Of a stretch of DNA of 64,000 nt, positions 30,588-38,145 are shown piece after piece. The notes beneath the pieces are model-generated. The model did not search any database and had not been told where the DNA came from. It was given only the letters and a program-made list of their open reading frames with translations. This DNA is from Escherichia coli (GTDB taxonomy: Bacteria > Pseudomonadota > Gammaproteobacteria > Enterobacterales > Enterobacteriaceae), in assembly GCF_002854065.1 (NCBI RefSeq), contig NZ_CP024147.1. One strand, given 5' to 3'. Within the stretch, counting starts at the first letter, position 1; each line of letters begins with the position of its first letter. A program made the translations under genes and the position numbers.

Positions 30588-31961
30588 GTGGATCATTTGC
30601 CTATATTTTGCCAATTACGCAATCGCGACTGTCTGATTGTCGGCGGTGGTGATGTCGCGGAACGCAAAGCAAGGTTGCTGTTAGACGCAGGCGCTCGCTT
30701 AACGGTGAATGCATTAGCGTTTATTCCACAGTTCACCGCATGGGCAGATGCAGGCATGTTAACCCTCGTCGAAGGGCCATTTGATGAAAGCCTTCTCGAC
30801 ACCTGCTGGCTGGCGATTACAGCGACGGATGATGACGCGCTTAACCAGCGCGTCAGCGAAGCCGCTGAAGCTCGTCGCATCTTCTGTAACGTGGTCGATG
30901 CGCCGAAAGCCGCCAGCTTCATTATGCCGTCGATTATTGACCGCTCACCGCTGATGGTGGCGGTTTCCTCTGGCGGTACTTCTCCGGTTCTGGCGCGCCT
31001 GTTGCGCGAAAAACTCGAATCACTGCTGCCGCTGCATCTGGGCCAGGTAGCGAAATACGCCGGGCAGTTACGCGGTCGGGTAAAACAACAGTTCGCCACG
31101 ATGGGTGAACGCCGCCGCTTCTGGGAAAAACTGTTCGTTAACGACCGTCTGGCGCAGTCGCTGGCGAACAACGATCAGAAAGCCATTACTGAAACCACCG
31201 AACAGTTAATCAACGAACCGCTCGACCATCGTGGTGAAGTGGTGCTGGTTGGTGCAGGTCCGGGCGATGCCGGGCTGCTGACACTGAAAGGTCTGCAACA
31301 AATTCAGCAGGCAGATGTGGTGGTCTACGACCGTCTGGTTTCTGACGATATTATGAATCTGGTACGCCGCGATGCGGATCGTGTTTTCGTCGGCAAACGC
31401 GCGGGATACCACTGCGTACCGCAGGAGGAGATTAACCAGATCCTGCTGCGGGAAGCGCAAAAAGGCAAACGCGTGGTGCGGCTGAAAGGCGGCGATCCGT
31501 TTATTTTTGGCCGTGGTGGCGAAGAGCTGGAAACACTGTGCAACGCGGGTATTCCGTTCTCGGTGGTTCCGGGTATTACCGCAGCTTCTGGTTGCTCTGC
31601 CTATTCGGGTATTCCGCTCACGCATCGCGATTATGCCCAGAGCGTGCGCTTAATTACCGGACACTTAAAAACCGGTGGCGAGCTGGACTGGGAAAACCTG
31701 GCGGCAGAAAAACAGACGCTGGTGTTCTATATGGGGCTGAATCAGGCTGCGACTATTCAGCAAAAGCTGATTGAACACGGTATGCCTGGCGAAATGCCGG
31801 TAGCAATTGTCGAAAACGGAACAGCAGTCACGCAGCGCGTGATTGACGGTACGCTCACACAACTGGGCGAACTGGCGCAGCAAATGAACAGTCCATCGCT
31901 AATTATTATTGGTCGGGTTGTTGGCCTGCGCGATAAACTAAACTGGTTCTCCAACCATTAA
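30588..31961 (+). CDS. cysG: Sirohaem synthase (multifunctional)
   Basis: ORF track 457 aa; N-terminal NAD-binding domain plus C-terminal SAM methyltransferase domain ([10 protein letters not shown]). Confidence 0.95.
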
Positions 31962-31970
31962 TTTAATCAG

Positions 31971-31994
31971 GGCCAGAGAATTCTGGCCTTTTTC
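31971..31994 (+). terminator. Rho-independent terminator after cysG
   Basis: ggccaga-gaat-tctggcc followed by tttttcg. Confidence 0.65.
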
Positions 31995-32132
31995 GTTTAC
32001 AACTCTCTTTATATATTCAGCAGATAAAAATATAACTCATTAACAAAAATCATTTGTTTTTGCCCCGTTATATTCACCGTTACAGCGACTTACAAAATTA
32101 AGTCATTCACTCACTGACGCCGATTAAATATT

Positions 32133-32141
32133 CCTGTATCG
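32133..32141. repeat. Left copy of 9-bp IS1 target-site duplication (CCTGTATCG)
   Basis: Identical 9-mer directly abuts both IS1 termini. Confidence 0.9.
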
Positions 32142-32156
32142 GGTAATGACTCCAAC

Positions 32157-32660
32157 TTATTGATAGTGTTTTATGTTCAGATAATGCCCGATGACTTTGT
32201 CATGCAGCTCCACCGATTTTGAGAACGACAGCGACTTCCGTCCCAGCCGTGCCAGGTGCTGCCTCAGATTCAGGTTATGCCGCTCAATTCGCTGCGTATA
32301 TCGCTTGCTGATTACGTGCAGCTTTCCCTTCAGGCGGGATTCATACAGCGGCCAGCCATCCGTCATCCATATCACCACGTCAAAGGGTGACAGCAGGCTC
32401 ATAAGACGCCCCAGCGTCGCCATAGTGCGTTCACCGAATACGTGCGCAACAACCGTCTTCCGGAGCCTGTCATACGCGTAAAACAGCCAGCGCTGGCGCG
32501 ATTTAGCCCCGACGTATCCCCACTGTTCGTCCATTTCCGCGCAGACGATGACGTCACTGCCCGGCTGTATGCGCGAGGTTACCGACTGCGGCCTGAGTTT
32601 TTTAAATGGCGGAAAATCGTGTTGAGGCCAACGCCCATAATGCGGGCGGTTGCCCGGCAT
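32157..32660 (-). CDS. insB: IS1 transposase InsB (expressed as InsAB' fusion by -1 frameshift)
   Basis: ORF track 167 aa [16 protein letters not shown]...KHYQ matches IS1 InsB. Confidence 0.93.
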
Positions 32661-32854
32661 CCAACGCCATTCATGGCCATATCAATGATTTTCTGGTGCG
32701 TACCGGGTTGAGAAGCGGTGTAAGTGAACTGCAGTTGCCATGTTTTACGGCAGTGAGAGCAGAGATAGCGCTGATGTCCGGCAGTGCTTTTGCCGTTACG
32801 CACCACCCCGTCAGTAGCTGAACAGGAGGGACAGCTGATAGAAACAGAAGCCAC
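32579..32854 (-). CDS. insA: IS1 InsA (transposition inhibitor / N-terminal part of transposase)
   Basis: ORF track 91 aa [42 protein letters not shown]...; A6C slippery motif (plus gtttttt 32597-32603) in the insA/insB overlap. Confidence 0.93.
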
Positions 32855-32909
32855 TGGAGCACCTCAAAAACACCATCATACACTAAATCAGTAAGTTGGC
32901 AGCATCACC

Positions 32910-32918
32910 CCTGTATCG
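32910..32918. repeat. Right copy of 9-bp IS1 target-site duplication (CCTGTATCG)
   Basis: Identical to 32133-32141. Confidence 0.9.
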
Positions 32919-32992
32919 TTCTTAATGAGCAGTCTACTTATATTCATATAATCAATGAATATTAATCAATATATAATACATAGGGAATGTAA

Positions 32993-33160
32993 ATGAACAA
33001 ATTTATTAAAGTTGCACTGGTAGGTGCAGTACTGGCTACGTTAACTGCATGTACTGGTCATATTGAAAACCGTGATAAGAACTGCTCTTACGACTACCTG
33101 CTGCACCCAGCAATTTCTATTTCTAAAATCATTGGCGGTTGCGGTCCTACTGCACAGTAA
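32993..33160 (+). CDS. yhfL: Small lipoprotein YhfL (55 aa)
   Basis: Manual translation MNKFIKVALVGAVLATLTACTGHIENRDKNCSYDYLLHPAISISKIIGGCGPTAQ with lipobox LTAC; not in ORF track because shorter than 60 aa. Confidence 0.75.
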   Translation: MNKFIKVALVGAVLATLTACTGHIENRDKNCSYDYLLHPAISISKIIGGCGPTAQ

Positions 33161-33201
33161 GTCTCTGACAGAAATCAGCTAACACCGGTTTAATTGCCCG
33201 A

Positions 33202-33236
33202 CGCCCTCTGGATTTTCCGAGGGCGTATTTGTTTCT
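33202..33236 (+). terminator. Rho-independent terminator after yhfL
   Basis: cgccctc...gagggcg stem followed by tatttgtttct. Confidence 0.55.
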
Positions 33237-33266
33237 GCATTCTTTTCGAAAACATCATTCACAAGA

Positions 33267-36043: not shown

Positions 36044-36922
36044 TTATTGGAAAAATTGAGAGGGATTTTCACGTAACATCACATCCACATCGGCCTGACT
36101 GAATCCTGACTGGCGCAATTGCGGAATAAAGGTGGTTAGTAAATAGTCATAGCCATAACCACCGTTGGCTTTTAAATGGGAGCGGCGCGTAATATCCATC
36201 GACAGCATGACGCGGTTCAGCAACCCACGGTCGCGTAGCGCATGAAGCATCGCAATACGCTTTTCGTCCGGGTAGTAACTGTTCTTACCAATGGTGTCGA
36301 ACTGCACATACGCGCCGAGATCGATCATCTTCAAAATGTTGTCGAGGTTGTCTTTCAGATCGCAGTGACCAACGGTGACGCGCGAAAGATCAACTCCGTG
36401 GGCTTGCAACAAAGCCAGTTGCTCCAGCCCCATCGTGCTGAACGACGTATGCGTGGAGATCGGGCGTCCGGTCTGGTTATGTGCCAGCGCGGCGGCAATA
36501 AATACCTTCTCTTCCAGCGGCGTAATCTTCCCTTCGCTGGAGCCGATCTCCGCGATGATCCCGGCTTTCAGTTCCGTGCCATCGATACCCTGCTCAATTT
36601 CATCGACCATCTCCTGCGCCAGTTCCTGCACGCTGCGGGTCGCCACATGTTCCGGGAAAAACGCGTCCTGGTAATAACCGGTACAGGCCACCACGTTGAT
36701 CCCCGTCTCGCGCATTACATCGAGCATAAATTGCGCATTGCGCCCCATGTAACGGTTGGTCATCTCAATCACATTACGCACGCCCCGGGCCATCAGGTCG
36801 TTCATCTCCTGGCAAATGAACGAATACTGATCAAGGCGGCAGTCCACGTTGTTTTTAAAGCCGGAGAGATCAATATGCAGATGCTCATGGGCGAGGGTGT
36901 AACCCGTCGGATCAAAACTCAT
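36044..36922 (-). CDS. php: Phosphotriesterase homology protein (amidohydrolase superfamily)
   Basis: ORF track 292 aa [32 protein letters not shown]... with metal-binding HxH motif. Confidence 0.9.
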
Positions 36923-38145
36923 AGGGTGTCTCCTGCAAACCGGAGGGAGGAAAGAAAAGAGCGACCATTTTGTGGCGGTGGCGCACGGAAAAATTCACAC
37001 ACGGTAGCCCCCACATCAGAAAGCGTGGTGCGCACACCGATCTGCGTAGTGACCAGCCCTTGCTGATAAACCAGCACTGGCACCACTTCACGGGTATGGT
37101 GGCTGTGACCAATGGTCGGATCGTTACCGTGATCCGCCATCACGACCAGGCAATCATCTGGCTGCATCGCCTCGACAAGCCGGGCAAGATTACGGTCAAC
37201 GACCTGCAAACGTTCGGCATAACTTGCGACGTCTTCTGCGTGACCAGCGAGGTCGGTTTCCTGAATGTTGGTGCAAATAAACGCTGTCTGATGGGTGATA
37301 AATTCGTCGAGGGTGATATCCATAATCCGCTGGCTATCCACCAGATTTTGCCAGCTCACGCCATAAGGATTGTTGACGATATCTGCCACCTTACCCACCA
37401 GCACGGTTGGCACGCCTGCTTCATACAGTTTTTGTGGCACCTGCACTTTTTCATCGACGCCATAGCCCATATGCACGACCTGGAAACCGTTGTCATAAGC
37501 GCCAGAACGCGGCGCATTAATACCAATAAAGCGCCCTTCTTTGCTTTCTGCGGCATCGAGAATACGCTGACTGTCGGTTAACAGGCCGCCAAATGTAATG
37601 ACCCGACCGACCTGTACCTGGTCACGCACGATACGACCAATTTTGATTGCGTCGTCAAAAGAGATCACAGAGAGATTGGCGGTAATGTTATAGACTTGGC
37701 CTAAATCCGCCTCGAGATTATCGCCAATCGCAACCGCCTGATTGACTCACAGAAATTGCAGTTCATCGCCACGGCGCTCCACCTGCCAACCGGCGGATAC
37801 TAATGCCTGCTCAACACGGTCAATCACATCGCGAAAGGGCATCCGCAGCGGCGGTAACGGGCGCGTGCCTAAAATTTCCTGATGCCCCATAAAGGTATCG
37901 CCACCTTCATGTTGCAGCTCTGCCACACCCCAGGTTGCGGAGTCTGACGGCTGCATATCACCTGGCGCATAACCCAATGCGTTGATTAGCCCCAGCTTCT
38001 CCAGCGTTGGTAGCTGCAAATGCGGCAGCTGGCTCAGGATGTGACCACAGGTATTCGCTCCGGCATCTTGCGGGCGCACCAGCGTGACATCTTTCATTGC
38101 ACCTACGCCAAAGCTATCAATCACTAACACCACAAATCGCGCCAT
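36919..38145 (-). pseudogene. yhfW: yhfW (phosphopentomutase-like metalloenzyme) interrupted by an in-frame TGA at 37747-37749
   Basis: ORF track gives a 132-aa N-terminal piece (37747-38145) and a 249-aa C-terminal piece (36919-37668); manual translation shows both are in the same frame with 26 sense codons between them, so a single TGA splits a 408-codon gene. Confidence 0.8.

Follow-up and report, generated by a model that had tools for sequence, protein, structure and literature searches.

Organization of the cysG–yhfL locus

The stretch of DNA analysed here (the window) comprises 64 kb of an Escherichia coli chromosome, in which an IS1 element lies between cysG and yhfL, and the two gene names given in the original prediction agree with the RefSeq annotation of identical DNA. 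The features of the locus are listed below, by window position.

30588..31961, plus strand: cysG, intact, named from the RefSeq annotation of identical DNA
31969-31990: terminator-like hairpin and T-run of cysG, 151 nt upstream of IS1 and untouched
32133-32141: left copy of the target-site duplication (TSD), CCTGTATCG, located with a repeat finder, 100% match to the right copy
32142-32909, minus strand: complete IS1, exactly 768 bp
32142-32164, plus strand: right inverted repeat (IRR, cysG side), GGTAATGACTCCAACTTATTGAT, beginning GGTAATGACTCC
32157..32854, minus strand: insAB' transframe transposase gene, 232 aa after the −1 shift
32660..32157, minus strand: insB reading frame, an ORF of 167 aa expressed solely as the C-terminal portion of InsAB'
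32603..32597, minus strand: A6C slippery motif AAAAAAC, IS1 nt 307-313, the −1 programmed frameshift site
32854..32579, minus strand: insA, 91-aa repressor with zinc-finger cysteines C8, C11, C32 and C35
32902..32875, minus strand: promoter-like site of IS1 itself, CTGCCA-16-TATGAT, overlapping IRL and reading into insA, away from yhfL
32887-32909, minus strand: left inverted repeat (IRL, yhfL side), GGTGATGCTGCCAACTTACTGAT, beginning GGTGATGCTGCC
32910-32918: right copy of the TSD, CCTGTATCG, located with the repeat finder
32922-32952, plus strand: predicted yhfL core promoter, TTAATG-19-TATAAT, from alignment to K-12 and a relaxed scan, intact
32993..33160, plus strand: yhfL, intact, encoding a 55-aa small lipoprotein (DUF4223), named from the annotation of identical DNA

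The complete 768-bp element that had been predicted, with both inverted repeats, insA, insB and the A6C motif, was found again in all its parts on re-inspection. When the canonical 23-bp IS1 ends were searched over the 64-kb window, with shuffled sequences as the null (0 matches expected), IRR and IRL were each found as a single exact match, and no second IS1 copy is present in the window. As each end occurs only once, we rejected the idea that the element belongs to a composite transposon or has a partner for recombination within the window. The two ends are identical at 18 of 23 positions and are thus of the kind seen in IS1 proper, namely imperfect inverted repeats of about 23 bp that begin with GGT(G/A)ATG. 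The insA and insB' frames, in phases 0 and −1, overlap and contain the A6C heptamer, again the layout of IS1 proper. InsAB' matches the IS1 family transposase equivalog NF033558 with 243.8 bits (cut-off 100) over profile positions 1-199 of 199, and the InsA N-terminus matches the IS1/IS1595 zinc-binding domain NF050000 with 37.9 bits (cut-off 28). In a strict scan of 31900-33250, the IRL-overlapping site is the only consensus promoter match, and its position at 32875-32902 agrees with that of the promoter described for IS1, which partially overlaps IRL (PMC12428005).

The cysG–yhfL spacer (31962-32992, including IS1 and the duplication) is 254 nt long without the insertion and has a GC content of 30%, as compared with 52% for the window, in line with the AT-rich intergenic target that had been proposed. 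The distance from the last base of IS1 (32909) to the A of the yhfL ATG (32993) was re-measured as 84, the value originally given, with 83 nt intervening. For YhfL there is no NCBIfam profile match, and no structured RNA was found in the spacer, as neither strand of the entire 64-kb window gave an Rfam match that reached the gathering score. In this strain yhfL is followed directly by yhfS (window 33161-33266); the fructoselysine operon frlABCDR, which follows yhfL in K-12, is absent here and also missing in XJ34, CUWW06 and ST131 genomes. Further downstream, yhfW (phosphopentomutase, 36919-38145, minus strand) has an internal stop at codon 133, and is likewise annotated as a pseudogene in CUWW06 and 100416.

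Sequence type of the element

Over its full 768 nt the element shows 100% identity to IS1 copies that many E. coli chromosomes and plasmids carry; among the 25 matches listed, every one showed 100% identity over 100% of the query. There are 5,497 records whose best IS1 place reaches at least 99% identity, the median number of IS1 places per E. coli genome is 11, and some records contain at least 40 matching pieces. In RefSeq the identical copies bear the label "IS1-like element IS1B family transposase".

IS1 nt 1-768 align without gaps to the IS1 copies of K-12 and of plasmid R100. The number of nucleotide differences from the window copy is one for K-12 IS1B and IS1C (nt 704), one for the R100 IS1 (nt 127), three for IS1D, eight for IS1A and 74 for IS1F. 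IS1R of R100/NR1 (NC_002134.1, 21225-21992) shares with the window copy its length of 768 bp, its ends, the A6C motif and 767/768 nt, and its InsAB' is identical over 232 aa, since the sole change (C at nt 127, T in the window copy) is synonymous; it adjoins the boundary of a resistance determinant, however, whereas the window copy is chromosomal. IS1B/IS1C of K-12 MG1655 likewise share 767/768 nt, but nt 704 is A in K-12, giving Q217 in InsAB', and T in the window copy, giving L217.

The original prediction had noted that the InsB translation differs at a few residues from another IS1 variant, and had suggested a distinct isoform. The variant meant was probably IS1A/IS1E of K-12, which agrees with the window copy in length, ends, organization and 760/768 nt, but differs at InsB-ORF residues 5, 17, 18, 19 and 65 and at InsA residue 81. 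Of the residue differences in InsB (R5S, P17T, P18S, F19L and R65S relative to IS1A), four of the five lie upstream of the frameshift site and so never become part of the transposase, and the IS1A transposase differs at only two residues (L81 and S130 in IS1A, F81 and R130 in the window copy). These are the known differences between IS1A and IS1B/R. Since many annotated copies match the element at 100% identity, and since it is one nucleotide from IS1B/C and one nucleotide from the R100 IS1, a new IS1 isoform was rejected, and the sequence identifies it as a standard IS1 of the IS1B/IS1R type.

Target-site duplication and the empty site

A perfect flanking repeat of 9 bp had been reported, and CCTGTATCG is indeed present at both junctions. 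The two copies are 777 bp apart, and the chance of a 9-mer match at exactly these positions is about 4 × 10−6; the perfect 9-bp TSD is also of the length expected for IS1 (typically 9 bp, sometimes 8). We have healed the site in silico by removing IS1 together with one copy of the 9-mer, and have searched for the 80-mer spanning the healed site. This 80-mer is matched exactly in E. coli XJ34, CUWW06 and 100416, strains that lack the insertion and in each of which CCTGTATCG is single, and the comparison with an empty site that the original prediction had called for is thereby provided.

Over 36,001 bp, the healed window aligns without gaps to both CUWW06 (3 mismatches) and 100416 (8 mismatches), so that the flanks are collinear. 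Because excision restores the empty site, and because the 36-kb context is collinear with two near-identical IS1-free genomes, the element does not mark a rearrangement junction, and the proposal of a simple transposition is supported by the exact healed site in three genomes and by the collinearity in two. An IS1 at exactly this position, in either orientation, was found in 0 of 5,426 complete E. coli genomes.

CUWW06 and 100416 are the nearest available relatives, and both have the empty site. From this empty site in near-identical genomes the insertion is most simply read as simple, strain-specific and recent, which agrees with the relatively recent event that had been proposed; measured against the time since these strains diverged, the insertion would be young. 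The word recent here reflects parsimony and the zero divergence from other copies, the latter of which could be mimicked by gene conversion among IS1 copies.

Mobility of the element

From the filled and empty alleles in near-identical genomes, we infer that this copy has been mobile. The IS1B/C copies of K-12 have been reported to be almost immobile, with L81F proposed among the causes (PMC12428005, 2025). The window element carries F81 and the other substitutions shared with IS1B/C, and the sole difference between them is residue 217 of InsAB' (L here, Q in K-12; window nt 32206, corresponding to IS1 nt 704). The reported immobility of IS1B/C thus sits uneasily with a recent jump of an element only one nucleotide different, unless L217Q, the context or mobilization in trans is responsible. 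Because an F81-bearing element looks freshly inserted and is abundant in natural isolates, L217Q or the local context would seem a better suspect than L81F for the immobility in K-12, and L217Q, rather than L81F, may be what cripples these copies. Alternatively, the window copy could have been mobilized in trans by another IS1 of the same genome.

Effect on the yhfL promoter

It had also been proposed that the insertion may disrupt or replace the native promoter of yhfL. In K-12, the cysG–yhfL spacer contains a constitutive RpoD promoter, flagged as H-NS-associated, with the predicted elements TTAACG-19-TATAAT (Shimada et al. 2014, PMC3946193); this is a sequence prediction within a SELEX peak and has an unusual 19-nt spacer. 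Our literature search found predicted promoters only, and no mapped yhfL transcript start. In the window the corresponding −35 (TTAATG, 32922-32927) and −10 (TATAAT, 32947-32952) are both intact, with 12 nt between the end of IS1 and the −35, and all reasonable −10 candidates for yhfL (32947-52 and 32972-77) are downstream of IS1. The insertion has destroyed one weak promoter candidate, CTGACG-17-TATCGT, which in the empty allele overlaps the target. In addition, 172 nt of AT-rich spacer (31962-32133, its left-hand part) are moved 777 bp further away from yhfL.

No hybrid promoter directed outwards from the IS1 flank was found in either the strict or the relaxed scan. An outward TTGGCA is present in IRL (32896-32901), but the hexamers found 17-18 nt further on, TTCTTA/TCTTAA, fail the −10 criteria, and hence there is no hybrid promoter toward yhfL. 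An IS1-created promoter driving yhfL, which calls for a −35 spaced 16-18 nt from a usable −10, was accordingly rejected. Within 32875-32952, the IRL promoter on the minus strand and the promoter predicted for yhfL on the plus strand are arranged back-to-back, their −35 hexamers being 19 nt apart.

The proposal was thus correct insofar as upstream DNA and one weak candidate are affected, but the predicted core promoter (32922-32952) is intact and no hybrid promoter is formed. Loss or replacement of the yhfL promoter by IS1 appears weakly supported from these predictions, and the net effect on yhfL is likely to be an altered upstream context only.

Recurrent IS1 insertions in the spacer of other E. 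coli

In other E. coli genomes, at least 14 distinct combinations of IS1 site, orientation and IS1 type were found in the cysG–yhfL spacer. Those at or near the spacer include the following.

TSD TGCTAATG (8 bp): IS1 in the spacer, minus orientation
TSD CTAATGGGT: IS1 in the spacer, minus orientation
TSD TGCTAATGG: IS1 in the spacer, plus orientation
TSD AAACAATGA: IS1 in the spacer, plus orientation
TSD TATATAATA: IS1 in the spacer, minus orientation
TSD GGGAATGTA: IS1 directly before the yhfL ATG, both orientations, IS1 types 93-99.9% identical to the window copy
TSD GTAGGTGCG: IS1 inside yhfL
One insertion in the cysG terminator
Several IS1-bounded deletions, reaching frlA, yhfU or towards trpS

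Since the insertions at GGGAATGTA occur in both orientations and with differing IS1 types, they represent at least four events. Altogether about 38 IS1 places were seen in the spacer versus about 4 expected if chromosomal places were uniform, a rough figure that is uncorrected for shared ancestry. The spacer IS1 copies of E. coli HCP6S3_I1, SY3626 and 2018-10-1CC have no TSD and abut, on one side, frlA, a truncated HTH-domain pseudogene beside trpS, or yhfU; they have the appearance of adjacent deletions mediated by IS1, in which yhfL and genes downstream of it were lost.

In a first comparison, about nine of ten independent spacer insertions had the orientation of the window copy. That search joined pieces on one strand only, however, so insertions of opposite orientation could not score, and with a flipped-IS1 query 16 genomes were recovered at 80% coverage or more, versus 12 for the native orientation. 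The apparent orientation bias vanished with this query, and was rejected as an artefact of the search design.

A related arrangement occurs on the 86-kb plasmid pLR-45_1 (NZ_AP027533.1, 21709-28997), where a chromosomal nirB-nirD-nirC-cysG segment is followed by IS1, IS26, nfsB and ybdG, and the left junction of its IS1 is 4 bp from the target in the window. Here a plasmid has apparently captured chromosomal DNA, which lies beside insertion sequences.

The preference of IS1 for AT-rich targets has long been known, and H-NS is reportedly involved in IS1 transposition (Shiga et al. 2001, as cited in PMC12428005). The recurrent insertions in the spacer fit this AT-rich preference, and are compatible with the "transposon capture" by H-NS, an effect so far shown for IS5-family elements alone (PMC11335895).

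Discussion

Taken together, the intact anatomy, the perfect duplication and the empty site in close relatives make us highly confident that a standard IS1 of the IS1B/IS1R type has recently transposed into the AT-rich spacer that separates yhfL from the cysG terminator, probably with little or no consequence.

The course of this event may be outlined from what has been described for IS1. A weak promoter overlapping IRL would drive insA (PMC12428005), as the intact anatomy suggests for this copy too. InsA, with its zinc finger and HTH, would repress this promoter and compete at the ends, and a rare −1 ribosomal frameshift at A6C would fuse InsA to the insB frame to give the DDE transposase InsAB' (PMC12428005). 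InsAB' would then bind both terminal inverted repeats and join them to staggered target cuts 9 bp apart, and gap repair at these cuts would produce the CCTGTATCG duplication. The element lies with IRL beside yhfL and with its genes reading towards cysG; AT-rich DNA reported as H-NS-associated is moved 777 bp away, and IRL, which can bind InsA and IHF, is set about 12-35 nt upstream of the −35. Because the insertion has left cysG and its terminator intact, as well as the ORF and the predicted core promoter of yhfL, the consequence for the neighbours is most likely small or nil, at most an altered upstream context.

Two other accounts were considered. IS1 is multicopy in most E. coli (median 11 places) and repeats are a classic source of misassembly, so that an assembler might have placed the element wrongly; a misjoin, however, would not generate a perfect 9-bp repeat of letters that occur only once in the empty site, and both flanks come from one locus and heal exactly, which makes an artefact extremely improbable. 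An ancestral IS1 that was precisely excised in the empty-site relatives would also leave exactly the site observed, by excision between the 9-bp repeats. Such a history would nevertheless demand that IS1 was precisely excised on separate occasions in XJ34, CUWW06, 100416 and practically all other genomes sampled, although precise excision of IS1 is rare, and the element shows no divergence from other copies of the active type. We consider an old insertion very improbable.

The recent insertion could, on the other hand, have been kept for a changed expression of yhfL, either through the breaking of an H-NS tract, as in bgl, or through the removal of an upstream activator or promoter. The K-12 spacer indeed contains an RpoD promoter and has been flagged for H-NS association (PMC3946193), IS1 is 12 nt upstream of the predicted yhfL −35 and has destroyed one weak upstream promoter candidate, and the neighbouring yhfL/frlA spacer was reportedly a target of adaptation during evolution in the mouse gut. 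The bgl promoter insertions of IS1 and IS5, by which H-NS silencing is relieved, resemble the present case in that an insertion sequence is situated just upstream of a promoter in H-NS-associated AT-rich DNA, but in bgl the insertion raises expression, and the parallel with yhfL would be a functional analogy only. The many IS1 hits on the spacer in other strains, including at least four at the 9-mer before the yhfL ATG, could be taken in the same sense, yet they are equally explained by the preference of IS1 for AT-rich DNA. They occupy many positions in both orientations, some of them disrupt or wholly delete yhfL, and the exact insertion seen here is in no other genome sampled, a pattern more like that of a permissive, dispensable target than of expression tuning. 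An adaptive insertion is therefore improbable in our judgement. That the spacer is a genuine capture hotspot for IS1, possibly mediated by H-NS, with some insertions (for example, those at GGGAATGTA) perhaps retained because silencing or rewiring of yhfL is advantageous, seems a rather unlikely reading of the same data.

We thus return to a recent transposition of probably little consequence. The observation is correct and the object is ordinary, because the element is of the standard IS1 type and not new: an intact IS1 whose AT-rich site is new but in no way unusual. The original prediction went too far on two points, the suggested new isoform and the possible loss of the promoter, and both are corrected here. 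As a strain-specific copy, the element can be used as a lineage marker, and it could serve as a substrate for later deletions mediated by IS1, of the kind seen at this locus in other strains. The wider pattern provides a modest lead on the target choice of IS1, and fits the known behaviour of IS1 in a dispensable, AT-rich and reportedly H-NS-associated spacer. If the spacer were a true capture hotspot, "transposon capture" would apply to IS1 as well as to IS5-family elements.
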